In this document: in pieces, positions 3,484 through 31,013 of the stretch
Numbering within the stretch: the first letter of the stretch is position 1
How the letters are laid out: every line of letters begins with the position of its first letter
Assembly (NCBI GenBank): GCA_018813375.1
Contig: JAHJBU010000053.1
Coordinates: forward strand, 1 to 33,028
From: Patescibacteria group bacterium
GTDB lineage: Bacteria > Patescibacteriota > Microgenomatia > UBA1400 > PJMF01
Reading direction: 5' to 3'
DNA: 33,028 nucleotides
Made by a program: the position numbers and the translations under genes
The notes under the pieces: model-generated
Databases searched by the model: none
What the model was told of the DNA's origin: nothing
The model's input: the letters and a program-made list of their open reading frames with translations, nothing else

Positions 3484-3510
3484 GTTGACATCTCATTTCC
3501 CAATGTCAAC
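3484..3510. terminator. 8-bp inverted repeat GTTGACAT / ATGTCAAC (11-nt loop) between convergent genes; a third GTTGACAT lies at ~3525
   Basis: Read directly from the sequence. It sits between the stop of 2535-3458 and the stop of the minus-strand recombinase fragment. There is no clear T-run, so a terminator role is weak; it could instead be a recombinase site remnant. Confidence 0.25.
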
Positions 3511-4033
3511 AAAATCCCCTGATAGTTGACATTCGCCAAGTGGCTTGTAGGTAACTTGTGCTGGCAGTAGAGTGCCTTTTGATGGTTTCTGTCAGTTCGT
3601 CTTTTTCTTTGGAGTACTGCTTGAATTTGCGGTTATAAAATTCCTGGGTGATTTTTTCATCGAGTTTGTCATCGTATAATTTGTCCATTCGCCTGCTAAC
3701 CGCCTCGTAGCGTGTTTCCAGCTCGCCCACGGTGCTGTTGTGATACTGGACTTCGTCCTGATGGCTTTCTTTGAGAGCTTTTTTTAACCATTCGACGATC
3801 CTTTGGTTTTTGAGTTTCAGGTTGTCAAAGCCCGACAGGAGTTGTTCTTCGACTCCTGGCTCTTTCACCCAAGTTTCCTGGGTGCAGTCGTGGTAGTGGT
3901 TACAATGCCCGTAGTGGATTGTCCTTTGCTGTTCCCAGGTAATTAAACCATTACAGCTAGCACACTTGATTAGCCCCTGAAAGAGGTATGAGTGCTTTCT
4001 GTATTTTGGGGTAGTTTTTGGGTTAATGGACAA
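3506..4033 (-). pseudogene. large serine recombinase, C-terminal fragment only (zinc-ribbon plus coiled-coil part; catalytic N-terminal domain missing)
   Basis: YLFQGLIKCASCNGLITWEQQRTIHYGHCNHYHDC matches the recombinase zinc beta-ribbon (Y-L-GL-KC-x-CG). It is followed by a coiled-coil-like stretch (YDDKLDEKITQEFYNRKFKQY). The apparent start codon lies inside the terminal IR of the adjacent IS, and no resolvase domain occurs on the other side of the IS. Confidence 0.65.
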
Positions 4034-5128
4034 TTTGCGTTGGTTTTTTAGTTAATTTTCATTGATATTTCCGTCAAATATGTAATAATTAGCACTTTAA
4101 AAGTGCTAGATAGGTGTATTTATGAAAAAAAATGGTGTCAGAACTGCGGTGAAAAGTTACAAAAATGGGGTAAAAATAGAGATGGTTCTCAACGATATTT
4201 TTGTAAAAATTGTCAGCAAACAAAAACTAGAAAAAGACCAGAGCTAACTCAGATTAATCATAAAAAAATATTTTCAGGGTGGTTGGTGGGTAAACAAAGT
4301 CTGACTGATTTTAGTGATAAATATGACGTTTCAATAAGAACTTTAATTCGTTGGTTTACTCTCTTTTGGAGTGAAGAACCACAACCAGGAGAGACTAATA
4401 TTTCTAATCAAGTTTTAATTATTGATGGTAAATATATAGAAAAGTTAGCTACTGTTTTAGTAGCTTGCGTTACTAGAAAAGTATCTTCTTGGAGTTTTAC
4501 TCAGCGAGAAAACTATGCTAGTTGGTTAACTTTTTTTAATACTCTAGTACACAATCCTTTTGCTATTGTTTGTGATGGGCAAAAGGGAATGCTTAAAGCT
4601 ATCAAAGAAAGATTTCCTCGAGTAATTATTCAGCGTTGTCAGTTTCATGTGATGAAGTACTGTTTGAGCAAATTAACCCAGAATCCAGAGAGCAAAGCTG
4701 CTCAGGAGTTACGAAATATTGTGCTTGGGATTAGTAAAGTTAAGACAAAAGAAAATTTTAGTATTTGGTTAGCTGACTACAAAATTTGGTATCAAAACTA
4801 TTATGGATTTCTCAAAGAGAAAACTTACCAAGAACACAATTTAACTCCAACTGGTAGAAAAAGGTGGCATTACACACACGGCAGATTACACGCTGCATAC
4901 TCACACCTTAAAAATTCTTTCCCCAATCTTTTCCAATACTTAAAATACCCCAAAATTCCTAACACCACTAATTTTGTAGAAGGAGCTATCAATGCTCCAA
5001 TGCAAGAAAAGTTAAGAAATCATCGTGGACTTAAACTACCGAAAAGAAGAATTTTAATCGCTCACTATTTGAGTGTAAAACAATGATTGTTTTTAACTAA
5101 AAAACCAACGCAAATTGTCCATTAACCC
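4020..5128 (+). mobile_element. insertion sequence, ~1.1 kb, with perfect 36-bp terminal inverted repeats and a single transposase gene
   Basis: GGGTTAATGGACAATTTGCGTTGGTTTTTTAGTTAA at 4020-4055 is the exact reverse complement of 5093-5128. The flanks (…GTAGTTTTT | … | TAAAGTTAC…) show no target-site duplication. Confidence 0.85.
4103..5086 (+). CDS. DDE transposase with N-terminal zinc ribbon (IS256/Mutator-like; family assignment tentative)
   Basis: CQNCGEKLQKWGKNRDGSQRYFCKNCQ is a zinc ribbon. IVCDGQKGMLKAIKERFPRVIIQRCQFHVMKY and TTNFVEGAIN resemble the IS256-type D..G..Ai...fP...QRC.vH and TN..E motifs; ISL3-like is not excluded. GTG start at 4103. Confidence 0.75.
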   Translation: MLDRCIYEKKWCQNCGEKLQKWGKNRDGSQRYFCKNCQQTKTRKRPELTQINHKKIFSGWLVGKQSLTDFSDKYDVSIRTLIRWFTLFWSEEPQPGETNISNQVLIIDGKYIEKLATVLVACVTRKVSSWSFTQRENYASWLTFFNTLVHNPFAIVCDGQKGMLKAIKERFPRVIIQRCQFHVMKYCLSKLTQNPESKAAQELRNIVLGISKVKTKENFSIWLADYKIWYQNYYGFLKEKTYQEHNLTPTGRKRWHYTHGRLHAAYSHLKNSFPNLFQYLKYPKIPNTTNFVEGAINAPMQEKLRNHRGLKLPKRRILIAHYLSVKQ

Positions 5129-8925: not shown

Positions 8926-9665
8926 AATTGAGGTATATACTAGTTTGTCTCTCTGTTCTAATAGGATTAGTTTTTTATTTACAATTAGCTCGACAAGAAC
9001 AAAAGACTCAAGCGACTTTTTCTCCTGTAGCTGCTAACCCCACAAATCTAGTTGATATAGGTAAACTAACTTTGGAGGATTATAAACACATTTCAGAAGA
9101 AAGCGGTGTTGTATTTGTATCAAAAAAAGATTCTCAAAAACAAATTTACTTTGATGATAAGCAGCTTCAATCATTGGAGATGTCACCTTCCCAGAAACAA
9201 GTTGCCTTTTCCTATAATCCAAACGAAACCGAAGAATTGAAAGAGAATGAACTTTCACTCATGCTTCTTGACCTAGATAGTAAAAAAGTAAAGGAGATTT
9301 TTCATACTACGTTTCCCTCTTGGGATGTAGCCGGGAATCCTGATTGGTTGGGGAATAACCATTTGGTATTCGTACGCCATTGTGGCACTTCTTGTCAGGG
9401 TCTAACGTTATTAAATATCCAGACCGGAGAGCTTAAAAACGCCACACTGTCCTATATGTCATCTTTTTCTGATCGACCAGTCTTTACTCATTTCGAAGAT
9501 TGGTTTAACACTCATTTTGAGTTAGATGGCTTTGTTAAACAAATTTTCACAGAGTTTGTAGGGGGAAAATATTATTTAGTTTTTGATATGCAAACGGATA
9601 TTGGTGAAGAAATCAACAAAAAAAAATTCCTTTTTCTTGAAAACAATCTTGCTTTAGAATCTTAA
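8922..9665 (+). CDS. hypothetical protein, N-terminally membrane-anchored or secreted
   Basis: Track ORF, ATGA-coupled to the upstream gene, with an N-terminal hydrophobic segment YILVCLSVLIGLVFYLQL. Confidence 0.6.
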   Translation: MKLRYILVCLSVLIGLVFYLQLARQEQKTQATFSPVAANPTNLVDIGKLTLEDYKHISEESGVVFVSKKDSQKQIYFDDKQLQSLEMSPSQKQVAFSYNPNETEELKENELSLMLLDLDSKKVKEIFHTTFPSWDVAGNPDWLGNNHLVFVRHCGTSCQGLTLLNIQTGELKNATLSYMSSFSDRPVFTHFEDWFNTHFELDGFVKQIFTEFVGGKYYLVFDMQTDIGEEINKKKFLFLENNLALES

Positions 9666-9752
9666 TAATCTGTTGACTTCTCTATTTGTCCACTCAGGGT
9701 ATTCTAAGTAAGTTAGCCAATCAATTCGTCCGAATTCATACCATTTCTCGAG
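9654..9752 (-). pseudogene. orphan 3' gene remnant (…LEKWYEFGRIDWLTYLEYPEWTNREVNRLLRF*); paralogous remnant at 15133-15234
   Basis: The minus-strand frame gives a 32-codon tail with no start. A second copy encodes LLERWYEFGRIDWVNELEYPEWTMKEVNRFLQY*. The nucleotide core CCAATCAATTCGTCCGAATTCATACCAT is identical in both. Confidence 0.45.
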
Positions 9753-9778
9753 CCAGATGGCACTTAATATACCAAGTT
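9750..9778 (+). repeat. junction hairpin module 3 (GAGCCAGATGGCACTTAATATACCAAGTT)
   Basis: The same module follows junction motifs at 12587-12613 (…GAGCCAGTTGGTACTTAATATACCAAGTT) and 24121-24149 (…AGCTAAGTTGGCACTTAATATACCTAATT). The best copy folds as TTGGTA-cttaata-TACCAA. Confidence 0.5.
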
Positions 9779-9904
9779 ATTAGTAAGAACAGTTTTAAAT
9801 ATTTTTTGTTATGTAATAATAGGATTATGTTAAAAAAACAATTGCTAATAAATTTATTCGCCGCCCCAATAGTTTCGCTATTGAGTTTAATTTGTCAGGA
9901 CTAA

Positions 9905-10165: not shown

Positions 10166-10184
10166 ATAAAGTTATGATGAAGAA

Positions 10185-10214
10185 AAGTCCTAACTTGGTC
10201 TAACGCGGGGAGCA
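10185..10214 (+). repeat. cassette-junction motif, copy A
   Basis: AAGTCCTAACTTGGTCTAACGCGGGGAGCA. Confidence 0.8.
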
Positions 10215-10291: not shown

Positions 10292-10927
10292 ATGAATAAA
10301 AATTTGGTGGTAGTTTTTGATTTTGACGGGACTATTGCTGATTCAGCACAAGCTACTATTGGCATATTTGATCAACTTTCCAAAGAATTTAATCTTGGTA
10401 AATCAGGGAGATACTTATTCGATATATACCGGGAAAAAGGAGCTAGGGAATTAGTTAAGGAATTAAAAATTCCTCTTAGGAAATTACCCACCTTGCTAAA
10501 GCGATATAGAGAGGAGTCAGCAAGAATAATTAAGGATCTAAAGCCGATAAGGCAAGTTGATGGCATGCTTGAAAAATTGAAAAATGAAGGTTTTGCCCTG
10601 GGAATACTTACTTCTAATTCAGGAGAAAATGTCGGGAAGTTTATTGAGAAAAATAAATTATTTTTTTTTGACTTCATTTATTCAGAGGGAAGCTTTTTTG
10701 GAAAAGATAAAGTAATAAAAAAGATGTTAAAGAATCAGCATCTTGATTCAAAACAAACTATTTACGTTGGTGATGAGGCGCGAGATATTGATGCTGCTAG
10801 AAAAGCTGGGATTAAGGTTATTGCGGCGACTTGGGGCTTCAATTCGGATGAGATCTTAAAGAAGAGTAATCCAGATTATTTAGTAAATAATCCTAAGGAA
10901 TTGGTTGAGATAGTAAAAAAGTTCTAA
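10292..10927 (+). CDS. HAD-superfamily hydrolase (phosphoglycolate phosphatase-like subfamily IA)
   Basis: Motif I VVFDFDGTIADS, motif II GILTSNS, motif IV YVGDEARDIDAARKAG. I prefer ATG 10292 (MNKNLVVV…) over the track TTG start at 10274. The TAA stop lies inside junction motif copy B. Confidence 0.85.
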   Translation: MNKNLVVVFDFDGTIADSAQATIGIFDQLSKEFNLGKSGRYLFDIYREKGARELVKELKIPLRKLPTLLKRYREESARIIKDLKPIRQVDGMLEKLKNEGFALGILTSNSGENVGKFIEKNKLFFFDFIYSEGSFFGKDKVIKKMLKNQHLDSKQTIYVGDEARDIDAARKAGIKVIAATWGFNSDEILKKSNPDYLVNNPKELVEIVKKF

Positions 10928-10948
10928 CTTGGTCCAACCCGGGGAGCA
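10919..10948 (+). repeat. cassette-junction motif, copy B
   Basis: AAGTTCTAACTTGGTCCAACCCGGGGAGCA; contains the TAA stop of the HAD gene. Confidence 0.85.
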
Positions 10949-10983
10949 AGTGATAAAAAAACCTATAGATGGCTATTTTTTTC
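10949..10983. terminator. junction module 2 (degenerate copy of the A-run/hairpin/T-run terminator module)
   Basis: AGTGATAAAAAAACCTATAGATGGCTATTTTTTT aligns with the better copies at 16452, 21698, 15233 and 27653, but the stem is degraded here. It overlaps the stop of the minus-strand Fic gene. Confidence 0.35.
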
Positions 10984-11971
10984 TATCGCGATTTTTAATA
11001 TATTTTTCTACTGCCTGAACGGTAGTTACCCAATTTCGTCCCTGCTTATGAGCTTCCAGCTTTCCATTTCTGGCTAATAAATTTAAATACTCTGCACTAT
11101 AAGGAGTCTTTTTACTGATTTCAGATAAAAATTTAAACTTTTTCTTTTGGTCATTGGTTGGTTGTAGGGCTTTTAAATAAATATCCAACGATCTTTCCAC
11201 AGCCTGAGTCACAAATCTGACTAAAGGCACATACTCACCCTGATCAGCTCTGTCTAAAACTCGGTAGTATTTTTTACGGTCATTTTTAAGCAAAATAGCC
11301 AATGGATAGCCCGCTCGCATTAAGATAATATTCATCATCAATCTGGCAGTCCGGCCATTACCATCAAAAAAGGGATGAATTTTAACTAATTTATGATGAA
11401 ACATAGCTGCCAACTCCACAGAGTGCAATGTCTTTTGATTTTTAGCAAACCAACTCATCAATTTATTCATCTGGTTTGGAACTTGTAAGGCATCTGGAGG
11501 AATATGGTCTGAGCCACCAATTACTACATTCCCAGTTCGGTACTGGCCTGCAAATTCTTCCTCAGTTTTTTTGACCACCAATTGATGAAAACTCTTCAGT
11601 AAGTGTTCTGAAAGAGTTGGTTGTGCCTCATGGCTAATCAAGTCATATAAAAACTCCAGAGCAGCATGATGATCTTTAGCTTCCAGATGATCCTTCAGTG
11701 GCTTGCCCTTAATAGTTAATCCTTCACGAATGACCCAGTAAGTTTCTTTTAAAGTCAAGCTGTTGCCCTCGATTCCATTAGAGTTGCAAGTCATCTCAAT
11801 CTTAAATTGCTCGCGCAGTTTTTTAACAGCTCCAGTAGGAAGTGGACGTAAAGATTGTAAAGTTTTTAGTTTTTGGTCTAAACGGGTTTGTAGGAACTTG
11901 GGTAGATATGTCATATTATTAGTATGGTTTATATTAAAATCAATACTATCCCATATTAAGAAATAAGTCAA
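10973..11971 (-). CDS. Fic/DOC family protein (Fic-1)
   Basis: Fic motif HPFFDGNGRTARLMMN. The start is likely the ATG at 11914 (MTYLPKFLQ…) rather than the track start at 11971. Confidence 0.85.
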   Translation of the reverse strand: MTYFLIWDSIDFNINHTNNMTYLPKFLQTRLDQKLKTLQSLRPLPTGAVKKLREQFKIEMTCNSNGIEGNSLTLKETYWVIREGLTIKGKPLKDHLEAKDHHAALEFLYDLISHEAQPTLSEHLLKSFHQLVVKKTEEEFAGQYRTGNVVIGGSDHIPPDALQVPNQMNKLMSWFAKNQKTLHSVELAAMFHHKLVKIHPFFDGNGRTARLMMNIILMRAGYPLAILLKNDRKKYYRVLDRADQGEYVPLVRFVTQAVERSLDIYLKALQPTNDQKKKFKFLSEISKKTPYSAEYLNLLARNGKLEAHKQGRNWVTTVQAVEKYIKNRDRKK

Positions 11972-11997
11972 GAATTTATTGTAAATTTAGGTTAAAC

Positions 11998-12027
11998 AAG
12001 TCCTAACTTGATCCAGCACGGGGAGCA
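11998..12027 (+). repeat. cassette-junction motif, copy C
   Basis: AAGTCCTAACTTGATCCAGCACGGGGAGCA. Confidence 0.8.
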
Positions 12028-12138: not shown

Positions 12139-12501
12139 ATGGCTTGGTTTGGTATGTTTAGCTATTACGGCAATATTAGTGAAGAGGGACTTGTGCTTTC
12201 AGATATTTTTGGAAAAAAAATTATCCCCTGGGATGATATCTTGAGAGTAAAAACAACTTCTCACAATGAAGATTTTTGGGCATATATCATAGTCACAAAT
12301 GATAATAAATATATTGTCCGCGCAGATTGTGATGATTTTGAAAGTTTATTAGTAGAAAAAGCACTTCTCGAACTTTATAAAATAAGTAAAATGGATCCTA
12401 AACGTAAAAAAATATGGAAAAAAATAGGTCATTCATATAAACATATAAACTTCCAAGATTGGCTAGACGATAAATTTCATGTATATAACATTGCCAGATA
12501 A
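12139..12501 (+). CDS. hypothetical protein (120 aa)
   Basis: Track ORF that fills the cassette between junction copies C and D. No motif recognised. Confidence 0.55.
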   Translation: MAWFGMFSYYGNISEEGLVLSDIFGKKIIPWDDILRVKTTSHNEDFWAYIIVTNDNKYIVRADCDDFESLLVEKALLELYKISKMDPKRKKIWKKIGHSYKHINFQDWLDDKFHVYNIAR

Positions 12502-12560
12502 CTATCTAATCTGTTTATTTTAAAGTAACCATATTTCAAATATCCCTTTACCCATTTCCT

Positions 12561-12613
12561 AGTTCGAGTAGTGACCAGCCCGTGGAGCCAGTTGGTACTT
12601 AATATACCAAGTT
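12561..12613 (+). repeat. cassette-junction motif, degenerate copy D, plus hairpin module 3
   Basis: AGTTCGAGTAGTGACCAGCCCGTGGAGCCA followed by GTTGGTACTTAATATACCAAGTT. Confidence 0.6.
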
Positions 12614-15132: not shown

Positions 15133-15234
15133 TCAATACTGTAAGAATCGATTCACTTCCTTCATCGTCCACTCGGGATACTCCAGCTCATTCACCCAAT
15201 CAATTCGTCCGAATTCATACCATCGTTCGAGCAA
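15133..15234 (-). pseudogene. orphan 3' gene remnant (LLERWYEFGRIDWVNELEYPEWTMKEVNRFLQY*), paralog of 9654-9752
   Basis: See 9654-9752. It is joined at GAGC to terminator module 2. Confidence 0.45.
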
Positions 15235-15385: not shown

Positions 15386-16405
15386 ATGTTTCAACCTAAG
15401 TTTACCCTAACTTCATTGCTTCTAGACAATCTTTCTAAAATTGAAAGATTCTATGGGCAGTTAGAGGCTCTTAAAATTCCCAAAAAACTAGAACTTAATT
15501 TAGAACGAGATAATTTGATTCAATCAACTTATGTTTCAAATAGTATCGAAGGAAACCCATTGTCACTGCCAGAAGTTACTAATTTACTCTTAGATGGCAG
15601 AGTGCCAGCAAATCGTGATGAAAAAGAAGTTAAAAACTATTTTGAGCTCCTTAAGAATTTGCCAAATATGACTACTAAATATTTAGATCTTGGATTAGTG
15701 ACAGATCTTCATTCTAAGTTATTAGTTGGAGTGAATGATGAAATTGCTGGGAAAATTAGAAATAAAAAAGTGGTAGTCGGTGGATATAAAAAAAATGATG
15801 GTGAGCTTAAGCTAGTGGTTAAGCACGATCCCCCTTATCATAAACAAGCACAAATAGGCGATTACTTGACTAAGTTACTATCTTGGTCAAATGAATCGTC
15901 AGAACAAGCAATTTTAAAAGCTGGAATATTTCATCATCAATATGTTTACCTGCATCCCTTTATGGATGGTAATGGTCGGACTTGTCGCTTATTAACAGCT
16001 TTCGTTTTGTTAAAAAATGAGTATCAAATTAATAAATACTTTGTTTTAGATGATTACTATGACTTGGACAGAAAAGAGTACTCAGATAAACTAAATAGTG
16101 CTGATCAAGGTGATAAAACAGAGTGGCTAGAATACTTTACGAGTGGAGTTAGGTATTCCTTACAAAGTTCATTGGGTCGGGTTAATAACATGATGAAAAC
16201 TTTAAAAGTTGAAAATAGACCTACTTCTAAAGAAACAGAAGTTTTAGCTTTTCTTGAACAGAATCAGCAAATCACTTCCAGTGATTTAGCCGATCACCTT
16301 GAAGTAAGTCGCCAACAAGCTCATAAATTTTTGGCTTCTTTATTGGAAAAAGGATTGATTGATAAAAAAGGTGAAACTAAAAAAAGTTATTATTTTATTA
16401 AGTGA
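15386..16405 (+). CDS. Fic family protein with C-terminal winged-helix domain (Fic-2)
   Basis: Fic motif HPFMDGNGRTCRLLTA. The C-terminal ITSSDLADHLEVSRQQAHKFLASLLEKGLI is HTH-like. Confidence 0.85.
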   Translation: MFQPKFTLTSLLLDNLSKIERFYGQLEALKIPKKLELNLERDNLIQSTYVSNSIEGNPLSLPEVTNLLLDGRVPANRDEKEVKNYFELLKNLPNMTTKYLDLGLVTDLHSKLLVGVNDEIAGKIRNKKVVVGGYKKNDGELKLVVKHDPPYHKQAQIGDYLTKLLSWSNESSEQAILKAGIFHHQYVYLHPFMDGNGRTCRLLTAFVLLKNEYQINKYFVLDDYYDLDRKEYSDKLNSADQGDKTEWLEYFTSGVRYSLQSSLGRVNNMMKTLKVENRPTSKETEVLAFLEQNQQITSSDLADHLEVSRQQAHKFLASLLEKGLIDKKGETKKSYYFIK

Positions 16406-16421
16406 TTCTTAGTAAGTAAAT

Positions 16422-16451
16422 AAGTCCTAACATAGTCCAGCCCGGGGAGCA
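16422..16451 (+). repeat. cassette-junction motif, copy E
   Basis: AAGTCCTAACATAGTCCAGCCCGGGGAGCA. Confidence 0.8.
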
Positions 16452-16484
16452 AGTGATAAAAAGACCTATAAATAGGTCTTTTTT
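16452..16484. terminator. junction module 2: bidirectional intrinsic terminator (best copy)
   Basis: AGTGATAAAAAGACCTATAAATAGGTCTTTTTT; stem AAAGACCTA/TAGGTCTTT flanked by A5 and T6. Confidence 0.7.
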
Positions 16485-16491
16485 GTTTGTA

Positions 16492-16500
16492 TGATATACT
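16492..16500 (+). promoter_or_regulatory. extended -10 element TGATATACT upstream of the Nudix leader (a duplicate lies at ~21738)
   Basis: Read directly from the sequence. It is followed by a ~70-nt leader up to ATG 16574. Confidence 0.4.
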
Positions 16501-16672
16501 CTAGTTTATGCACAGCATCTTGTGTACCTGCTGATTTTTCGGCACTACGCTTGAAAAAGTCAGGGTCCGTAATATGAAAAAATGGCAACTAATTTCAGCC
16601 GAAGATATTTCTCCCAGCAAATGGTTTCCTTTGGAAAAGAGAAGCTATCAACTTCCCAATGGAAAACAAATT

Positions 16673-18186
16673 TGTTAGCCCAAAATGAAAATGTCCCCTT
16701 TCTGCAAAGTAGGAATGTCCCCTTTTGGAAAAAAGCATTCATAATTTAATTGCGTAGCAATTAATGAACTGGAGGCTGGAAATGGGAGATATTGTCATGA
16801 GCGATAAAGAAGTAAATCAGATCGAACTTTTTGAGAAGTTAGCTAGAAAAGAAATAAAACAAGGAAAGGTGGCAAATATTCTTGGTTTGTCTGTAAGACA
16901 AATAAAAAGAAAACTTAGGAAATATAAGCTAGATGGAGCTAAATCATTGGTTAATAAATCTAGAGGAAAAGTTAGTAATAGAAAGATTAGCCAGGAAAGA
17001 ATAGATAAAGCAATTACATTAATTAGAGATAAATATTGGGATTTTGGTCCAACGCTAGCTAATGAAAAACTGCTTGAAATCCATAAAATAAAACTTAGCG
17101 TTGAAAAACTAAGACAAGAAATGATCAAGGCAGGGATCTGGAAACCAAGAAAAAGAAGAAAGGCTCATGTACATCAGTTACGAGAAAGAAGAGCTTGTTT
17201 TGGGGAATTAATACAGCTAGATGGTTCTCCTCATGACTGGTTTGAAGGTAGAGCTCCAAAGTGTAATCTAAATGTTGCTGCAGATGATGCAACTAATACG
17301 TTTAGTGTTAAATTTAGTAAGACTGAAACAACTCAGGATTACTTTAAATTACTTGAAGAATACATAGGTCAATATGGATTGCCAAGGGCAATCTATGCTG
17401 ATAAGCACTCAATATTCAGAGTAAATACCCCAAGTAATCTTGATCTAAAAAAACCAAGTAAACATGATAAATATGAAAGACTAACTCAATTTGGTAGAGC
17501 ATGCAAAGAATTAGGTATTGAATTAATTTTTGCTAATACTGCTCAAGCTAAAGGTAGAGTTGAAAAAGTTAATTATACTTTTCAAGATAGACTTGTTAAA
17601 GAAATGAGATTAGAAGGTATCTGTAGTATTGAAGAAGCAAATAAATTTGTTCCAAAATATATGAAAATATTTAACAAAAAGTTTTCAAAAACACCAAGAT
17701 CAACAGTTGATATGCATAGAAAGTTAAGCAAAAATATTGATCTATCAAGTATTTTTTGTCTTAAAGAAACTAGAATTCTTTCTAAAAATCTAACTTTTCA
17801 GCGAAATAATATTATTTTCCAGATTAAAACAAAAAGAACTGCATTTACCCTTAGAAAAACTCAAGTCACAATCTTAGAAAGATATGATGGGTCAATTAAA
17901 ATATTCGATTACAGAAATAAACCCCTCAAGTATGAAACTATTAAGTTGCTTCCAAGTATTAAAGCTACAAGTAGCAAAGAACTTAATTCTAAACTCGATG
18001 ATATACTAATTCGAGAAACAAAGAAAAACTACAGAAAAAAGAATCCATGGGAATCTAGCTTTGAAGAGCTAGGTAAAAATATAGGTTTTTACAAACCACT
18101 TGGAGCCGTTTAACAAAAATATTAATTACCCAAAAGGGGACATTCCTACTTAGGACAAAAGGGGACGTTTCTAAATGGTGCTAACA
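16673..18186 (+). mobile_element. insertion sequence, 1514 bp, rve-type DDE transposase (IS481 / IS1202-group-like), with a 15-bp target-site duplication
   Basis: The ends are TGTTAGC… and …GCTAACA. Each end has imperfect ~55-bp IRs carrying two AATGTCCCCTTTT-type subrepeats. The flanks hold an identical AATGGAAAACAAATT at 16658-16672 and 18187-18201. Confidence 0.9.
16764..18113 (+). CDS. DDE-type integrase/transposase (N-terminal HTH plus rve core)
   Basis: HTH in GKVANILGLSVRQIKRKL. Core LIQLDGSPHDWFEGRAPKCNLNVAADDATNT…GLPRAIYADKHSIF is typical of IS481/ISNCY(IS1202)-type transposases. The start may be the internal ATG (MSDKEV…). Confidence 0.85.
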   Translation: MNWRLEMGDIVMSDKEVNQIELFEKLARKEIKQGKVANILGLSVRQIKRKLRKYKLDGAKSLVNKSRGKVSNRKISQERIDKAITLIRDKYWDFGPTLANEKLLEIHKIKLSVEKLRQEMIKAGIWKPRKRRKAHVHQLRERRACFGELIQLDGSPHDWFEGRAPKCNLNVAADDATNTFSVKFSKTETTQDYFKLLEEYIGQYGLPRAIYADKHSIFRVNTPSNLDLKKPSKHDKYERLTQFGRACKELGIELIFANTAQAKGRVEKVNYTFQDRLVKEMRLEGICSIEEANKFVPKYMKIFNKKFSKTPRSTVDMHRKLSKNIDLSSIFCLKETRILSKNLTFQRNNIIFQIKTKRTAFTLRKTQVTILERYDGSIKIFDYRNKPLKYETIKLLPSIKATSSKELNSKLDDILIRETKKNYRKKNPWESSFEELGKNIGFYKPLGAV

Positions 18187-19872: not shown

Positions 19873-20331
19873 ATGAATCAAACTAAATATTTTAAACTTG
19901 GCATCAGAACAGATAATATTAAGAAAAGTCTTTTACCTTATACAATTCTAACTGCTATTCTCAGTCTAGGACTAATTACTTCACTTAGATTATTTAGTCA
20001 GTCCATGATGGGTGTTTACGATACTCTTTATCCATTATTTTGGATTTCAATACCTCTGAGTATTTTGCAAGAAATAGTTTTTCGAGGGTTTGGTATGTAT
20101 CAGCTCAAAAAATTATTTAAAAAACCAATTACTGTGATTTTGTTAAACAGTATTTTATTCTCGCTATTTCATATGTTTGTTCCAGAGCAACTACTTTTTG
20201 TACCCCTATCATTTTTATCTGGTCTAGCTTTTGCTACAGTTTATTATTATCATCCAAATCTGTTTTTAGTTTCACTTGCACATGTAGTAATTAACTTACT
20301 ACCAGTGTTTTACTGGGGTCTTATTGAATAA
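19873..20331 (+). CDS. CPBP family intramembrane glutamic protease (CAAX/Abi-like)
   Basis: Motifs QEIVFRG (EExxxR-like), FSLFHM (FxxxH) and HVVINL (HxxxN) within a polytopic membrane protein. Confidence 0.8.
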   Translation: MNQTKYFKLGIRTDNIKKSLLPYTILTAILSLGLITSLRLFSQSMMGVYDTLYPLFWISIPLSILQEIVFRGFGMYQLKKLFKKPITVILLNSILFSLFHMFVPEQLLFVPLSFLSGLAFATVYYYHPNLFLVSLAHVVINLLPVFYWGLIE

Positions 20332-20334
20332 GAG

Positions 20335-20364
20335 AAGTCTTAACTTGGTCCAACCCGGGGAGCA
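20335..20364 (+). repeat. cassette-junction motif, copy F
   Basis: AAGTCTTAACTTGGTCCAACCCGGGGAGCA. Confidence 0.85.
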
Positions 20365-21556: not shown

Positions 21557-21665
21557 ACAATAAACATATTGGTGCCGATAGTTTATTTCCAAAAAAAGTC
21601 TTGTCATCTGTGCTGTAAACACCTCAGTATCTTCCCTAGCAATAGTTAATAGTTGAGACTCATAT

Positions 21666-21697
21666 CCGTTTCGTAACGAGTCCTGGGGGGGGGAGTA
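21666..21697 (+). repeat. cassette-junction motif, variant copy G (contains a G9 run)
   Basis: CCGTTTCGTAACGAGTCCTGGGGGGGGGAGTA. The ~65 nt to its left (21600-21665) are homologous to 29800-29865 and 28890-28943. Confidence 0.7.
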
Positions 21698-21730
21698 AGT
21701 GATAAAAAGACCTCTGGATAGGTTTTTTTT
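21698..21730. terminator. junction module 2 terminator copy
   Basis: AGTGATAAAAAGACCTCTGGATAGGTTTTTTTT; imperfect stem with a long T-run. Confidence 0.5.
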
Positions 21731-21861
21731 ATTTGTATGATATACTCTATTTTATGCACAGCATCTTGCGTACCTGCTGATTTTTCGGCACTACGCTTGA
21801 AAAAGTCAGGGTCCGTAATATGAAAAAATGGCAACTAATTTCAGCTGAAGATATTTCTCCC
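21698..21861 (+). repeat. 164-bp near-identical duplicate of 16452-16615 (terminator module, promoter, leader and first 14 codons of the Nudix gene)
   Basis: Aligned by eye with about 3 mismatches (ctagttt/ctatttt, cttgtgt/cttgcgt, gccgaag/gctgaag). Identity ends after …GATATTTCTCCC in both copies. Confidence 0.85.
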
Positions 21862-21900
21862 TGCTCGTTATATGCGGAGCTACAGGAGCTAGCTAAATAA
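21820..21900 (+). pseudogene. Nudix 5' remnant ORF (MKKWQLISAEDISPCSLYAELQELAK*), whose TAA overlaps ATG 21900 of the EamA gene
   Basis: The first 14 codons equal those of 16574-16615. The stop and next start form TAATG. Confidence 0.6.
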
Positions 21901-22823
21901 TGAAATCAACAACTAAGCTAATTAATACTCCTTTTGCAAATGTATTTTTATTTTCTTTCTTTTGGGCAATCTCAATTATTGTGAGTAAGTTAGCTTTTAA
22001 TGCTGGAGCTCATCCCGTTACTTTTTTAATTCAGTCGGCAATTGTTTCTCTGGTTTTATTAGCAGTCTATGTTTTACCTCAAAAACATCAAGAGTTGAAG
22101 AGTTTGCCTCGCAAAGTATTTGGAGGAATTGTATTGGCTAATGCCATTCATTTTGGTCTAGGAGCATTTTTTATTAATTCAGGTACAGCATTGACATCGG
22201 CAGTCAATGTGGGCTTTTTGAGTAAATTTGCGACTGTAACTACAATCATTTTTGCTTGGCTGATCTTAAAAGAAAAATTAACTAAATCTAAATTAATTTC
22301 TGTGGCTATTATGATAGTGGGTGTGTTTTTAATTACTACTAAGGGTCAAGTCATCGTTCCTCAACCAGGAGACATTCTGGTTCTGTTAGCTTGCACTTCT
22401 TTCTCTTTAGGAAATGTATTAATGAGAAAATTTTTGAAAAACTATGCTGTGAGCGGAGAGTTAGTCTCATTCTTGCGTCCAGTTTCAGGTTTACCAATAT
22501 TATTGATTTTTTTACTTTTTTCGCCAATTTATCCCCAACAAATACAGCCTGTTTTTAATGTAAATATTTCAAATTTAACTTTCTTGCCTTATATAATTGG
22601 CAGTAGCCTTGCTTCCTCACTATTAACAATTTTCTTAAATAGAACACTGAAAGTATCTAGCGCTTCATACATGTCAATGATGTCAATGATGACACCAGTG
22701 ATCGTGAGTGCCATGGCAATAATATTATTAGGAGAAAGCATGGTATTGATCCAACTAGTAGGAGCAATCTTGATTATTTTATCTGGAATAGCAACACATT
22801 ATTTAAAGATAGAGAAGCAATAG
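21900..22823 (+). CDS. EamA/DMT-superfamily transporter
   Basis: 307 aa with about 10 TM segments in two halves, typical of the EamA duplication. Confidence 0.8.
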   Translation: MKSTTKLINTPFANVFLFSFFWAISIIVSKLAFNAGAHPVTFLIQSAIVSLVLLAVYVLPQKHQELKSLPRKVFGGIVLANAIHFGLGAFFINSGTALTSAVNVGFLSKFATVTTIIFAWLILKEKLTKSKLISVAIMIVGVFLITTKGQVIVPQPGDILVLLACTSFSLGNVLMRKFLKNYAVSGELVSFLRPVSGLPILLIFLLFSPIYPQQIQPVFNVNISNLTFLPYIIGSSLASSLLTIFLNRTLKVSSASYMSMMSMMTPVIVSAMAIILLGESMVLIQLVGAILIILSGIATHYLKIEKQ

Positions 22824-22853
22824 AAGTCCTAACTTGGTCCACGACGGGGAGCA
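22824..22853 (+). repeat. cassette-junction motif, copy H
   Basis: AAGTCCTAACTTGGTCCACGACGGGGAGCA; begins immediately after the TAG stop at 22821-22823. Confidence 0.85.
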
Positions 22854-24035: not shown

Positions 24036-24094
24036 TTTTTAATGAGTGAAGAGGACGTAGAGCGTTTTATTCAGCAAATTTAAATCTACTTTTT

Positions 24095-24149
24095 GGTTGC
24101 GGAATAGGTCCAACGCGGGGAGCTAAGTTGGCACTTAATATACCTAATT
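24095..24149 (+). repeat. cassette-junction motif copy I (left half diverged) plus hairpin module 3
   Basis: GGTTGCGGAATAGGTCCAACGCGGGGAGCT followed by AAGTTGGCACTTAATATACCTAATT. Confidence 0.7.
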
Positions 24150-24812: not shown

Positions 24813-25568
24813 ATGAAAAAATTACTTTTTTTAGTTGCAGTTGCAACAGTCTTTGCATTTACTACTTCTCCTGTTATGGCAACTAATTCATCATCTACAA
24901 CGACTTCGTTTGATTCAATAGTAACTAAAATTCAAGAGGGGGTTGAGTATTTTTTTACCTTTAAGGTAGAGAAAAAAGTTGAGTTATTAGAAAAATATGC
25001 CGAAAAAAGATTAGTTATGACGCAAGAGTATGCAAAAGAAGGTGATGATGAAAAAGTACAAAATACGATGCAAAATTACCTTCAGATAAAAGAAAAACAA
25101 AATAATTTATTGGGCAAAAATGAAGCTGAGGGTGTCTTGGGGGTAGTTCAAGAAAGGACTATTGATCAACAGAAAACAATGGAAGTAATCAAAACTATAG
25201 TTGGTGAAGAAATGAAACAAGAGGTGATGCAGGTTCAAGAACAAGTTGTAAACCAGGTGGTACAAAGAGTTGTAGATGTGAATGGGACAGAGGGAAGGGA
25301 TGAATTTTTTCAGAAAGTTGAACATGTATGGGCTCCTGGGACAGGACCCGGAGGTGAGGCTGGAACAACTTTTGCTCCTGGGACTTCTGGTACTGGCGGC
25401 GGCGGGGTAGTTATTGAAGGAGGATCAATCCAGTTTGCACCTGGGACAGGACCAGGAGGTAATGGGGGTGTAGTGATTGAAGGAGGTGCTGAACAGTATG
25501 CTCCTGGGACTTCAGGAGGAGGAAATAGTGGAGCTGACATTAAGAACGTTGAAGTAGTGGGTAATTAA
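24813..25568 (+). CDS. secreted protein with a Gly-rich repeat C-terminus
   Basis: Strong SD GGAGGTG upstream and a signal peptide MKKLLFLVAVATVFAFTTSPVMA. The C-terminus carries repeats APGTGPGG…GVVIEGG…(F/Y)APGT. Confidence 0.8.
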   Translation: MKKLLFLVAVATVFAFTTSPVMATNSSSTTTSFDSIVTKIQEGVEYFFTFKVEKKVELLEKYAEKRLVMTQEYAKEGDDEKVQNTMQNYLQIKEKQNNLLGKNEAEGVLGVVQERTIDQQKTMEVIKTIVGEEMKQEVMQVQEQVVNQVVQRVVDVNGTEGRDEFFQKVEHVWAPGTGPGGEAGTTFAPGTSGTGGGGVVIEGGSIQFAPGTGPGGNGGVVIEGGAEQYAPGTSGGGNSGADIKNVEVVGN

Positions 25569-26710: not shown

Positions 26711-27697
26711 ATGGCACAAACACAAGATGACCGAACTAAAACGACTTTTATCTCAAACATTGCTGATGTTTCTTTGTCACACTTGCTTGAGTTAATGATT
26801 GCTCTTAGTGAATATAGGGAAGGACTAGTGCTTATCGGTGGTTGGGTTCCCTATCTATTGCTCAAGCATTATCAGCCTTCAAGTGTGGATTTTCAGCATA
26901 TCGGTTCTAAAGATATAGATATTGCGGTCAATCCCAAAATTGTCGATGAATCTGGCTATGCCTCTATTTTAGAAATATTAAAGCAACGAAGTTACGAGCC
27001 TAAACTAGATATAAAAGGTAATTCAATTCAACATTCTTTTGTAAAGAATGTCACTACCAACAGAGGTGAAGGGCAAATTCAAATCGATTTCCTGGGCCCT
27101 GAATACGGTGGAACCAAGAAAAGCAAGCGTCATCAACGGATTCAGAATGATTTTCTTGTCAGAAAAGCCAGAGGTGTAGATGTAATGTTTGATCATGCAA
27201 TAGATGTTGTTCTTGAAGGAAAACTTCCTGATGGAGCTGAAGGTCAGACAACCATTAAAATGGCGAATATTGTAGGGATCATGACGATGAAAGGTATTGT
27301 TGTTGGCTCTCGCTATAAGCAGAAAGATGCCTACGATATTCACAGCTTAATTTTATATTACAAATCTGGACCACTTGCTGTGGCAAAAGAAGTCAGGCCG
27401 TTTATTGATAATGGTTTAGTGAAGGAAGCGCTTGAATCTATCCATGAAAAGTTTCGTTCTCGAGAAGCAGAAGGTCCAAGTTGGGTGGCAGATTTCTTGG
27501 AGGCTACCGATGAGCTTAGAGAGCAAATCAAAACACAGGCATACCTGCAGGTCCAACGTTTTTTAACAGCTCTATATGAACTACCTCAGATTTCTGAGGA
27601 AGAAGGTCCTGCAATTCCAGAGGAGATTCCAGATATTGATAGACTTAGAGAGCAAGTGATAAAAAGACCTTTGAATAGGTCTTTTTTAATTATGTGA
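26711..27697 (+). CDS. nucleotidyltransferase, AbiEii/AbiGii toxin-like
   Basis: LVLIGGWVPYLL … IGSKDIDIAV fits the minimal NTase G-S…D-x-D pattern. It lies directly downstream of the AbiEi-like gene. The last ~15 codons read through terminator module 2. Confidence 0.5.
   Translation: MAQTQDDRTKTTFISNIADVSLSHLLELMIALSEYREGLVLIGGWVPYLLLKHYQPSSVDFQHIGSKDIDIAVNPKIVDESGYASILEILKQRSYEPKLDIKGNSIQHSFVKNVTTNRGEGQIQIDFLGPEYGGTKKSKRHQRIQNDFLVRKARGVDVMFDHAIDVVLEGKLPDGAEGQTTIKMANIVGIMTMKGIVVGSRYKQKDAYDIHSLILYYKSGPLAVAKEVRPFIDNGLVKEALESIHEKFRSREAEGPSWVADFLEATDELREQIKTQAYLQVQRFLTALYELPQISEEEGPAIPEEIPDIDRLREQVIKRPLNRSFLIM
27653..27687. terminator. junction module 2 terminator copy, not preceded by the 30-nt junction motif
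   Basis: GAGCAAGTGATAAAAAGACCTTTGAATAGGTCTTTTTT; stem AGACCT/AGGTCT. Confidence 0.6.
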
Positions 27698-28863: not shown

Positions 28864-28968
28864 TTATTTTCTGTTGGATATATCTAGTTGATCAATAAGT
28901 ACTCTAATCTCTTCTCTGGCAATAGTCACTAATTTTGATTTATACTCGTTCCGAAACGAGTCCAGCAT
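28864..28968 (-). CDS. small ORF (34 aa, MLDSFRNEYKSKLVTIAREEIRVLIDQLDISNRK), ribbon-helix-helix-like; its 5' end is the junction motif
   Basis: ATG-initiated, not in the track. It is homologous to 29756-29884 and to the frame through 21600-21690. The beta-strand-like KLVTIA followed by a helix resembles an RHH N-terminus. Confidence 0.45.
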   Translation of the reverse strand: MLDSFRNEYKSKLVTIAREEIRVLIDQLDISNRK

Positions 28969-28977
28969 GGGGGAGCG
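28944..28977 (+). repeat. cassette-junction motif, variant copy K
   Basis: ACTCGTTCCGAAACGAGTCCAGCATGGGGGAGCG; the left half forms the hairpin CTCGTT-ccga-AACGAG. Confidence 0.7.
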
Positions 28978-29012
28978 CATAGTACAGACTTCGAAGTATA
29001 ATTAAACAAATT

Positions 29013-29759: not shown

Positions 29760-29884
29760 GTTTCAATTTTGTATTGCTGAACTGGTATTGAGAGTAATCT
29801 AGTCAATTGCTCAGTAAATACTTGAGTATCTTCCTTGGTGATTGTCAATAGTTTTGACTCATACCCGTTCCGTAACAAGTTCAC
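29756..29884 (-). CDS. small ORF (42 aa, VNLLRNGYESKLLTITKEDTQVFTEQLTRLLSIPVQQYKIET), paralog of 28864-28968
   Basis: GTG start, not in the track. Compared with the copy at 21600-21690, most differences are third-position synonymous changes in this frame (gga/ggg, tct/tca, tta/ttg, act/aca, att/atc, gtg/gta, cag/caa). Confidence 0.45.
   Translation of the reverse strand: MNLLRNGYESKLLTITKEDTQVFTEQLTRLLSIPVQQYKIET
29866..29884 (+). repeat. cassette-junction motif, partial copy L (left half only; GGGGAGC half replaced)
   Basis: CCCGTTCCGTAACAAGTTCAC aligns with the left half of copies G and K. Confidence 0.5.
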
Positions 29885-29898
29885 TAAGAAAAGTGTTA

Positions 29899-29941
29899 TG
29901 TCGCGATTTATGTCGTGATTCTGTCGTGATTTATGGTATAC
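29899..29941 (+). promoter_or_regulatory. three tandem TGTCGYGATT(T/C)(A) repeats (period 11-12 nt) followed by an extended -10 TGGTATACT, upstream of Fic-3
   Basis: TGTCGCGATTTA TGTCGTGATTC TGTCGTGATTTA TGGTATACT cataat ATG(29949). Confidence 0.5.
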
Positions 29942-29948
29942 TCATAAT

Positions 29949-30992
29949 ATGTATTCGCCTAAATTTATTATTACCCCTCAGCTTAATAATCAGATTGCTC
30001 AAATTGAGAAATTTAAACAAGTGGTTGAGACTAGTCGGATTATTCCTGAACAGGAAATAAGCCTTCGCTATAGATCTATGCTTGAGTCAGTGCATAGCTC
30101 CACTTCGATAGAGGGCAATCCTTTAAGTCCCCAACAAGTCCAAGATGTGATTATTGGTAGAAAAATACGCGCAATAGATCAAGCAGTCATTGAAGTTGAG
30201 AATTACAAAAAAGCTTTAGATTGGTTTGAGCAACGGGTAGAAACAAAAAAAAAGCTGTCAGCTCAAGATGCATTTAAACTTCACTCAATGGTTGTGGATC
30301 GATTATTACCAGCTAAAAAAATTGGGCAAATTAGACCTGGTCAAATTTATATTATTGATGAAATTGGTGATCAAGACATTATTCAGTACACAGGACCAAA
30401 CCCTAGTAAGGTTAAAAGTTTGTTGGACAATTTGTTTTTTTGGATTAAAAATAAAGGCAAAGAACTTCACCCCGTATTATTAGCAGGCATTCTTCACTAT
30501 GAATTTGTCTCAATTCATCCTTTTAGTGACGGCAATGGTCGAGTAACTCGTCTTTTAACTAAACTATTATTATCACTTAATCATTACGACTTCAAAGGTG
30601 TCTTAGTGCTAGATAATTATTATGCTCAAGATAGACTCGCATATTACCAAGCTTTGAGCTTAGGTAGAACTTACTCGCAAAGAAATAAGGCAGACCTTAC
30701 TCCTTGGTTGGAGTATTTTGTTGGCGGGGTAGTAATAGAGGCAGAAGCCTTGGCAGAAGAATTTAGTGTTATTAGTTTAAAAGAGGGGGAAGTACGGGTA
30801 AAGTTATCTAAAGAAGAGATTTCTATTCTTTCTTTTGTTAAACATTTTGGGCAGATTTCGCTGGCTGAAGCTAGGGATATGGTAAAAGGTACTGATAGAA
30901 CTGTTCAGAGAAGGTTAAAAAAATTAGTTGTTGATGGGTTTCTAGAACAACAAGACCAGGCTAGAAGAGCGTACTATAAACTAAAGTCCTAG
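29949..30992 (+). CDS. Fic family protein with C-terminal winged-helix domain (Fic-3)
   Basis: Fic motif HPFSDGNGRVTRLLTK. Same architecture as Fic-2, with similar N-termini (MYSPKFIITPQL vs MFQPKFTLTSLL). The TAG stop lies inside junction copy M. Confidence 0.85.
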   Translation: MYSPKFIITPQLNNQIAQIEKFKQVVETSRIIPEQEISLRYRSMLESVHSSTSIEGNPLSPQQVQDVIIGRKIRAIDQAVIEVENYKKALDWFEQRVETKKKLSAQDAFKLHSMVVDRLLPAKKIGQIRPGQIYIIDEIGDQDIIQYTGPNPSKVKSLLDNLFFWIKNKGKELHPVLLAGILHYEFVSIHPFSDGNGRVTRLLTKLLLSLNHYDFKGVLVLDNYYAQDRLAYYQALSLGRTYSQRNKADLTPWLEYFVGGVVIEAEALAEEFSVISLKEGEVRVKLSKEEISILSFVKHFGQISLAEARDMVKGTDRTVQRRLKKLVVDGFLEQQDQARRAYYKLKS

Positions 30993-31013
30993 CTTGGTTC
31001 AACGCGGGGAGCT
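30984..31013 (+). repeat. cassette-junction motif, copy M (last copy in the window)
   Basis: AAGTCCTAGCTTGGTTCAACGCGGGGAGCT. Confidence 0.8.

Follow-up and report, generated by a model that had tools for sequence, protein, structure and literature searches.

The stretch analysed here, 33,028 nucleotides (nt) of DNA from a Patescibacteria group bacterium (contig JAHJBU010000053.1, assembly GCA_018813375.1; 35% guanine plus cytosine, GC) and hereafter called the window, carries between ~9.75 and 31.0 kb at least 13 gene cassettes of 0.5-4 kb, with genes mostly on the plus strand, that are parted by direct repeats like the 3' end of tRNA-Asn(GTT) (consensus AAGTCCTAACTTGGTCCAACCCGGGGAGC). At three of these junctions, G, K and L, ~100 nt of additional conserved sequence lie to the left of the repeat motif and can be read on the minus strand as small open reading frames (ORFs). 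We propose, with a probability of about 0.8, that G, K and L are orphan 3' tails of a large serine recombinase (LSR) gene that crosses its own attachment (att) site, and that the tRNA-Asn-end repeats are the att sites bordering the cassette array. An earlier reading of the same DNA from its letters alone (the sequence-only reading) had seen in these junctions a family of mini-genes for a ribbon-helix-helix (RHH)-like protein, with the junction motif as their 5' end.

G (21599-21681), K (28879-28961) and L (29798-29880) belong to a single direct-repeat family (D5, 63-76% identity), and in the window an nhmmer profile picked up these three copies and no more (E 2e-26 to 2e-28), bearing out the ~100 nt that the sequence-only reading had described as common to them. 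Translation also confirmed its minus-strand readings, with K giving MRSPMLDSFRNEYKSKLVTIAREEIRVLIDQLDISNRK and a stop from an ATG start, L giving (V)NLLRNGYESKLLTITKEDTQVFTEQLTRLLSIPVQQYKIET and a stop from a GTG start, and G giving ..QDSLRNGYESQLLTIAREDTEVFTAQMTRLF.. without a start codon; its count of 10 synonymous changes against 7 replacements between G and L became, on recounting, 11 synonymous codon differences and 7 replacements (codons 4-30), and the 30-nt motif does read LPGLDQVRTF.., with LPALDLFRNQ.. in a variant termed copy I. Beyond the core, the ~75 nt of what we call the RNGY arm follow the pattern ..RNGY(K/E)S(K/Q)LLTI(T/A)(K/R)ED.xxFTxQ(L/M)TRL. In K, an extra G puts LDS.. out of frame with W-L-P, and in G the core has degenerated to CCTGGGGGGGGGAGT, a G-run. 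No further RNGY copies were detected by nhmmer across 61 genome loci; a codon-aware pattern scan of metagenomes returned 5 loci, of which three duplicate K, L and the copy at locus L001 while L067 and L068 share one new variant, and the copy at L064 is identical to K. Cargo genes stand to the right of G, K and L, where an HMM (hidden Markov model) search of the six-frame translation showed no LSR; owing to this and to the damaged cores, we regard G, K and L as orphan element-side arms, most plausibly the fossil right arms of elements or of element-derived cassettes, which most likely neither yield protein nor recombine efficiently. As an aside, L068 (1400-1545, with the same sequence in L067) has a short-motif-like piece, GGTTCTAACTTGGTCTAA, that lacks the GGGGAGC end and is joined to an RNGY arm which is truncated; on its minus strand the composite reads WLPMLDSLRNGYKSQLLTISRSDIEIILDQVRTFYID and a stop, and this arrangement suggests nested or recombined arms.

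The peptide of the RNGY arm recurs as the C-terminal tail of LSR ORFs. A profile of the mini-ORFs yielded one match, of 55 residues, in a word-index search of 5.8e9 proteins, and five hits in an exhaustive HMM search of 1.84e9 representative proteins, namely the same 55-residue protein (P0001), P0002, P0003, P0004 (42 residues) and P0005; P0002 and P0003 were rejected as relatives, both being repetitive proteins in which repeats had produced the match, over 6 and 11 short stretches. In P0005 (186 residues), residues 34-136 match (E 3e-32) positions 380-482 of a 491-position LSR-family HMM for which 38 full-length relatives were used; the ORF, at locus L069, then continues in frame as ..SEW-LPVLDSFRNGYKSDVLDITSTDIRIFNEGMARLL, i.e. 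..W-LPVLDSFRNGYKS.., with the DNA reading through TGGCTCCCCGTATTGGACTCG. The identity of this tail to P0001 is 56% (E 7e-12), that to L 44% (E 1e-8), and at L070 a decayed LSR end, ..FFESDYLNARPIW, stands directly before an RNGY tail. The homologues of P0005 form a large family whose full-length members, at ~490 residues, carry Resolvase, Recombinase and Zn_ribbon_recom domains and are therefore LSRs. All members share ...SSE.EEKRQLL..FQNL.L.GK.....PF-(10-12 residues)-(W), after which the tails diverge into antisense-tRNA (WLPSLDSNQD, WGRLDSNQRRPKSRDLQS.., GFEPTT...), WYEFGRIDW, FRTFDW and RNGY types. The other junction types of the window (WLERWYEFGRIDW..., LPGLDQVRTF...) likewise occur as LSR tails elsewhere: in P0006 an LSR C-terminus is followed by WLERWYRFRRTDWASYLEYPEL.., a tail 57% identical to window positions 15133-15232, and in P0011, P0026, P0033, P0070 and P0081 LSR C-termini are followed by ..D(A/G/M)FRT(F/L)DW.., like the LDQVRTF of the short motif. 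As judged by these comparisons, every matchable left-of-boundary type in the window appears elsewhere fused to an LSR end. The continuity of LSR and tail is seen at related loci and not in the window, where no LSR gene lies immediately upstream of a tail; the full-length LSRs examined (480-500 residues) stop 0-7 residues after the point where conservation in the family alignment ceases, with the long tails on shorter fragments.

The junction core, ..TCCAnnnCGGGGAGC followed by CA, corresponds in the tRNA's own orientation to the 3' T-stem, acceptor strand, discriminator G and CCA of tRNA-Asn(GTT), and a real tRNA-Asn read antisense in the same frame gives WLPGLDSNQQP and a stop. What had been taken for the 5' end of a mini-gene matches instead the 3' end of a tRNA-Asn read backwards: the 'L-D-(S/Q)' start of the mini-ORFs and the likeness of the short motif to it derive from a common tRNA-like core and not from a common protein N-terminus. 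The recombination breakpoints had been placed just after the first codons, and the exchange point more probably lies upstream of them on the minus strand, at GAGC/CA, the slash marking the point where similarity stops and on which all junctions were aligned. Motif matches with at most 3 mismatches numbered 6 in the window (0 expected), and those to a loose core 12 (0.58 expected). Left of the boundary we distinguished the 30-nt short motif, the ~100-nt type of G, K and L, the type of 9663-9753 and 15142-15232, and single types at 12588 and 24123; right of it stand a terminator hairpin (AAGTGATAAAAAGACC..GGTCTTTTTT), a sequence that we call class-P (CAGATGGCACTTAATATACCAAGTT) or unique sequences. 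Across the alignment of all junctions, left and right types pair freely into a mosaic, as site-specific exchange at GAGC/ or close by would produce.

The tRNA-Asn itself is present at the related loci L001, L017, L072 and L074. In L001 and L017, ARAGORN called a tRNA-Asn(GTT) ending in ..ggttcgaatccagtccggggagc followed by CA, with junction-type repeats downstream in the same orientation, at 4.8 kb (L001) and 1.85 kb (L017); the distal repeat in L001 is an RNGY element directly behind a Gp49/HTH_3 pair. A short-motif scan covering one genome per species returned a metagenome-assembled genome (MAG) of Paceibacterota (L019), in which a terminator hairpin comes after every one of 7 junction copies spread over 7.7 kb, together with other Patescibacteria and MAGs labelled Actinomycetota or Elusimicrobia. 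Arrays with the same junction (GGTTCTAACTTCGTCCACTACGGGGAGC/CAGCAAACCAAGCG, then a hairpin) and units of 0.6-2 kb were seen at L007, L022, L033, L057 and L063, which are MAGs labelled Actinomycetota with 50-55% GC, and at L018 (Elusimicrobia), L043 and L060; those in other phyla could reflect real cross-phylum spread or mis-binned contigs. It was also observed that the sequence straight after tRNA-Asn is kept between L001 (plus-strand coordinates from 14853 downwards) and L017 (CAGTTAGTCGTTACTCT vs. CAGCTCGTCGTAACTCT), across a 34%-GC and a 58%-GC genome, perhaps as a conserved right half-site. We set aside the early thought of the short motif as an internally deleted tRNA, its anticodon loop joined to the T-stem, which rests on a 9/13 match.

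Integrated LSR genes show the overlap directly. At L074, a 493-residue LSR (Resolvase, Recombinase and Zn_ribbon_recom) ends in ..AAC TGG CTC CCC GGG TAG, sharing the final 15 nt with the 3' end of a tRNA-Asn encoded on the other strand, beside rpoD and dnaG; no distal att site was found there within 10 kb. An LSR relic (P0009) overlaps tRNA-Gln likewise at L071, and L072 presents in order a tRNA-Asn, one cassette for 121 residues, a junction and a relic LSR gene whose frame leads back into the junction. The pattern is replicated independently by phage LSRs that form a clade ~30% identical to the window's LSR family (IMG/VR contigs L075-L081). There, the genes of L080 and L081 are near-identical up to ..CATAAACTGG (CTGG) and then diverge, having different targets: the L080 gene runs into antisense tmRNA, those of L081 and L077 into antisense tRNA-Leu. 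On L075, L076 and L078, where this position holds no tRNA, a tail of 38 residues is conserved to the stop codon (LDMTSPQSNLLLQQFVDSLSDVVYLSRIREYKKCA in L075 and L078, with conservative replacements only in L076), and the DNA similarity of L076 to the other two stops right after it; we infer that this tail represents the attP form. The switch point of the phage-clade tails is the antisense CCA, and the similarity boundary of the window, at GAGC/CA, is in the same position.

Joining the short motif to class-P gives a 51-bp dyad, TAACTTGGT-N33-ACCAAGTTA, centred ~1.5 nt right of GAGC/ (TAACTTGGTCCAACCCGGGGAGC CA GATGGCACTTAATATACCAAGTTA), in which the ACCAAGTTA of class-P is the inverted partner of the TAACTTGGT of the short motif; 25-nt LSR-end relics at three window junctions complete this dyad with the short motif. 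Read on the minus strand, class-P (LGILSAIW, or ..LGILSA(I/N)W) looks like the last codons of an LSR gene, and its copy at 9754-9780 is probably a P' half-site. We surmise that the 51-bp dyad is the LSR site, with crossover at the CA. For LSRs in general, ~40-50 bp suffice as att site and are recognised as double-stranded DNA.

If the RNGY arm was once a recombinase tail, its ~75 nt beyond the core may be expected to bear a coding signature. Six copies (G, K, L and three from other metagenomes) were compared over the 25 codons beyond the tRNA-like part; in the frame of the sequence-only reading, which is that of the LSR, the ratio of non-synonymous to synonymous differences per site (pN/pS) was 0.55 with zero stops, vs. 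0.57-1.19 with 3-22 stops in the other five, so the comparison of frames that this reading had proposed gave its minus frame the lowest ratio and made it the only stop-free one. The observed ratio was reached in 5 of 1000 column shuffles, it was 0.35 among the four closest copies, and the variable columns of G, L and L001 were distributed 10/3/15 over the codon positions. Protein-level constraint on the minus frame, as claimed earlier, is hence upheld by the codon pattern for the ~75 nt beyond the motif and not for the motif itself, which is antisense tRNA; translation as an LSR tail in the past is the best explanation of the coding-type pattern.

Alternatively, the ~100 nt might be purely a DNA element, an att arm of binding sites for the recombinase or accessory factors, with a codon-like pattern arising by chance or search bias. 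We deem this unlikely: an LSR att site needs only ~40-50 bp and not 100, the one stop-free frame and the shuffling result would have to be fortuitous, the ORF is directly continuous with an LSR, and the analogous phage tail is conserved exactly to its stop with conservative replacements, even though the sharp outer boundary of the element in at least 4 different cargo contexts, a small palindrome at the T-arm position (CTCGTT...AACGAG in K, CGTT...AACG in all copies), the double-stranded recognition of LSR sites and the small, partly biased sample would all suit a DNA element. A folded element, be it a single-strand site like the attC of integrons, a 3' untranslated-region element or a tRNA-like pseudogene, is scarcely credible to us. 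The motif does follow the cargo stop codon, as attC does, its core is tRNA-derived or tRNA-like, and a terminator hairpin comes after some junctions (repeat family D6 in the window), but RNAalifold on 7 copies found no conserved secondary structure except a 4-bp hairpin (-1.6 kcal/mol), the window returned no Rfam hit and no tRNA call, Pfam scanning of 20 ORFs disclosed no tyrosine or integron integrase, and the likeness to tRNA is limited to ~25 nt. An integron proper (IntI plus attC) was rejected, with no consensus hairpin and no IntI among the 20 ORFs scanned; so were Xer/dif-type modules, as no XerC/XerD-type dyad was seen in the motif and the GC skew is positive throughout the window, with no terminus-like switch.

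Annotating the mini-ORFs as RHH regulators is tempting but wrong. This interpretation holds G, K and L to be independent genes for a small cassette regulator, divergent from the cargo, from whose first codons the motif descends; it is consistent with the open frame and its coding-type substitutions, the ATG of K and the GTG of L, a promoter-like site ~30 nt upstream of K on the minus strand (29039-29010), and the stretch SKLLTITKED..F..QL..L, which by eye superficially resembles the strand-helix start of an RHH domain. We nonetheless consider it very improbable and already largely refuted, as evidenced by: 1) eight tail peptides matched no Pfam family (hmmscan, E<=10), and their profile had no hit in PDB at E<=10, be it RHH, CopG or Arc; 2) the copies have no common start codon, G having none, L using GTG with its core lost, and the ATG of K lying inside the tRNA-like core, where in L068 it is the internal Met of W-L-P-M-L-D-S; 3) no Shine-Dalgarno sequence is visible by eye, and promoter-like sites around K and L occur at chance (7 vs. 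6.5 expected); 4) the conserved part, at ~30 residues, is too short for a two-helix RHH domain (~45 residues), and its ends and stops are unconserved; 5) the first codons are antisense tRNA, and at L069 an LSR continues in frame into this very peptide; 6) only three such ORFs were found among 1.8-5.8e9 proteins. The divergent orientation, which had suggested a cassette-borne regulator, loses its meaning as well, since the divergent gene belongs to the next cassette and the arrangement of mini-ORF and cargo is thereby incidental. A free peptide made from K (ATG) or L (GTG) is improbable and finds no support in the same data on RHH similarity, start codons and promoter-like sites.

Returning to the recombinase-tail proposal, we postulate that the repeats parting the cassettes would be attachment sites of an LSR family whose gene would sit at one end of the element, convergent with the tRNA, its ORF crossing the exchange point at the antisense CCA; as the ORF would cross the site, the tail beyond ...PF-(10-12 residues)-W would be encoded by whatever lies beyond. 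Once integrated beside the tRNA, the tail would be tRNA antisense (WLPG or WLPGLDSNQQP, then a stop) and the ORF would end within a few codons; in the circular form, or behind another element, it would be the element's own right arm. G, K and L would be three copies of one such right arm, of the RNGY type, with a ~25 nt tRNA-like core for recognition by the recombinase. The LSR would bind a ~50-bp site, the left half being the chromosomal tRNA end or the element's tRNA-like arm and the right half the last codons of the LSR gene or a look-alike sequence, and exchange would probably take place at the CA of the CCA end. The tRNA body would stay on the chromosomal side, so that the tRNA would never be disrupted, and the element's right arm with its tail-coding segment would end up distal. 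We surmise that the long tail is translated on the circular element, with selection acting there, and that cassettes lacking an LSR are mobilised in trans. Many cassettes start with a terminator-like sequence resembling that after tRNA genes (junctions 10947, 15232, 16450 and 21696, and all those of L019); such a start would restore an attB-like site at the tRNA with each insertion, which could explain tandem arrays.

Several points weigh against this proposal. Against the tail profile alone, P0005 scores a modest 36 bits (E 4e-4); the two links between an LSR and RNGY, L069 and L070, are relics themselves, truncated at the N-terminus or frameshifted and lying on contigs of 2 kb and 0.7 kb, and no intact LSR with an RNGY tail was found in our searches. 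Protein- or codon-aware searches supplied the additional copies of the pN/pS set, a bias in favour of coding conservation, and pS is near saturation (0.62). Conservation of RNGY ends at ..TRL, the ORFs then running through 3-30 unconserved codons to differing stops, unlike the phage-clade tail, which is conserved to its stop. An LSR is normally limited to attP x attB, which tandem arrays do not readily fit, and the window has neither a tRNA-Asn nor an intact LSR, so that activity of this array is conjectural.

The C-terminus swap of intP/intX in the Myxococcus phage Mx8 and the intN/intC relics of SSV-type archaeal integrases offer a parallel in which the recombinase ORF spans an att site in a tRNA gene, integration alters or splits the protein end, and orphan pieces remain at the borders. 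The integrases of Mx8 and SSV extend across attP, and in 2014 tyrosine integrases alone were known to target tRNA genes (Islander paper, PMC4383910). Theirs are tyrosine recombinases whereas here it is an LSR, the overlap here is antisense to the extreme tRNA 3' end (CCA), and the remnants are ~1-kb cassettes, not proviruses. The tycheposon islands of Prochlorococcus arise by repeated integration at one tRNA, with partial tRNAs and fragmented integrases scattered about, and have tyrosine recombinases in 910 of 937 cases (bioRxiv 10.1101/2020.12.28.424599). Like them and the Islander tandem arrays, the present arrays would reflect accretion at one tRNA, with older elements pushed outward and decaying; in contrast to tycheposons, the units here are much smaller (0.5-4 kb) and mostly without recombinase, and the borders consist of a recombinase-tail arm of ~30-100 nt and not just of a tRNA fragment. 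With integrons they have in common an array in one orientation, mostly single-gene cassettes, a recombination site directly after the stop codon and a cargo with many toxin, defence and accessory genes (Fic, AbiEi, HAD, Nudix), but here there is no IntI (20 ORFs scanned) and no folded attC, the cassettes have promoter-like regions of their own, and the sites have the look of double-stranded LSR att sites, either of tRNA-end origin or imitating such an end. In mycobacteriophages BPs and Brujita, as Broussard and colleagues are said to have described in 2013, attP lies inside a coding sequence whose C-terminus differs between the free and integrated states and is used as a switch. The att site in coding sequence and the state-dependent C-termini are alike, although in those phages it is the repressor gene that crosses attP and the integrase is a tyrosine recombinase; a regulatory role of the tail swap in our system is only a hypothesis by analogy.

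In full-text literature searches we came upon no account of cassette arrays built by LSRs at the tRNA-Asn of Patescibacteria, which is not proof of absence, and the Gracilibacteria 'hypervariation' paper, considered as a precedent, proved unrelated; in Patescibacteria-like genomes such arrays look like a new variety of the known tRNA-targeted integrative elements. More speculatively, and doubtful as it stands, a widespread LSR clade in Patescibacteria-like genomes and phages might target tRNA and tmRNA 3' ends with its stop-proximal coding sequence, the tail swap sensing the integration state and thereby setting directionality or stability, while the same LSRs move ~1-kb cassettes without a recombinase in trans into integron-like arrays at tRNA-Asn. 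The recombinase-tail proposal would explain a codon-like substitution pattern in a non-gene, and it would direct an LSR family to the target class that in 2014 had been ascribed to tyrosine integrases. It would further imply recombinase ORFs extending over their own attachment site, the enzyme acquiring another C-terminus on integration, and compact cassette arrays at tRNA-Asn in bacteria with reduced genomes, for which few routes of gene exchange are known. LSRs are genome-engineering tools, and a natural family aimed at a defined tRNA end of ~50 bp, its tail depending on the state of integration, would be of interest there.

The cassettes of the window carry HAD hydrolases, Nudix, EamA and ATP-grasp proteins, an AbiEi-type pair, a putative methyltransferase and three proteins with a Fic motif (HPFxDGNGR). 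An HMM search of the six-frame translation found the internal relic listed below as the only LSR sequence in the window; it abuts a Mutator-family transposase gene (4103-5086; region 3506-5086), and the recombinase serving this island was probably destroyed by insertion of this insertion sequence (IS). The target tRNA-Asn may lie beyond the left end of the window, and exact-protein look-ups with the genes at the window's ends, aimed at extending the contig, gave no match.

Table 1. Junctions, putative recombinase-tail segments and related features of the window.
Feature	Position	Strand	Reading or remark
G, putative RNGY-type tail segment	21506..21696	-	conserved part 21594-21696; frame open down to 21506
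K, putative RNGY-type LSR tail segment with damaged tRNA-like core (extra G)	28864..28980	-	38-residue ORF from ATG, 34 residues from second ATG
L, putative RNGY-type tail segment	29756..29884	-	conserved part 29792-29884; CGGGGAGC core missing; 42-residue ORF from GTG
Short junction	10180..10213	+	AAGTCCTAACTTGGTCTAACGCGGGGAGC; right end of cassette starting at 9754
Short junction	10914..10947	+	minus-strand reading LPGLDQVRTFLLSQPIP, then stop
Short junction	11993..12026	+	repeat and motif match
Short junction	16417..16450	+	repeat and motif match
Short junction	20330..20363	+	repeat and motif match
Short junction	22819..22852	+	repeat and motif match
Short junction, last of the window	30979..31012	+	repeat and motif match
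Copy I, further tail type	24039..24123	-	LPALDLFRNQKVDLNLLNKTLYVLFTH, then stop; only tRNA/T-loop-like part in common
WYEFGRIDW-type tail	9663..9753	-	..LEKWYEFGRIDWLTYLEYPEWTNREVNRLL..; family D7; P0006 has this tail fused to LSR C-terminus
Second WYEFGRIDW-type tail	15133..15232	-	LERWYEFGRIDWVNELEYPEWTMKEVNRFLQY, then stop; 57% identity to P0006 tail, E 4e-11
Other tail type	12477..12588	-	W-LHGLVTTRTRKWVKGYLKYGYFKINRLDSYLAMLYT, then stop; with T-loop-like TTCGAGT
Class-P sequence, right of boundary	9754..9780	-	CAGATGGCACTTAATATACCAAGTTA; minus strand LGILSAIW; carries ACCAAGTTA (family D9)
Class-P relic	12589..12613	-	..KLGILSTNW up to the boundary
Class-P relic, frameshifted	24124..24149	-	
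Internal relic of LSR gene, same family, both ends truncated	3509..4051	-	HMM positions 267-423 of 491, E 6e-33
Fic-motif gene	10973..11971	-	HPFxDGNGR
Fic-motif gene	15386..16405	+	HPFxDGNGR
Fic-motif gene	29949..30992	+	HPFxDGNGR

Some further features were noticed along the array. A 175-nt repeat (94% identity) is found just right of two junctions, at 16444-16618 and 21690-21864, its copies preceding a 449-residue ORF (16764-18113) and an EamA-like membrane gene, respectively; the former we take from its sequence to be an IS481-like transposase, Pfam giving weak helix-turn-helix matches only, and the repeat may be an IS end or a common cassette leader. At 27650-27685, a terminator-type right-of-boundary sequence (GAGCAAGTGATAAAAAGACC..GGTCTTTTTT) lies within the 3' end of the ORF 26711-27697 with no motif to its left, and may be a junction minus its arm or a module moving independently. 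Between L and the adjoining Fic-motif gene, three direct repeats TGTCG(C/T)GATT(T/C)(A/T) (29888-29935) look like a putative operator. Tandem 63-nt repeats at 25332-25526 encode a Gly/Pro-rich segment (..APGTGPGG..VVIEGG..) in a secreted-looking protein (24813-25568). Finally, the small palindrome at the tRNA T-arm position, ~-32 to -17 from the boundary, differs with the type of left arm (CTCGTT...AACGAG in K, AATTCG...CGAATT in the 9753 type, AAGT...ACTT in the short motif, GCTGG...CCAGT in the tRNA), its palindromic character being retained while the sequence varies.

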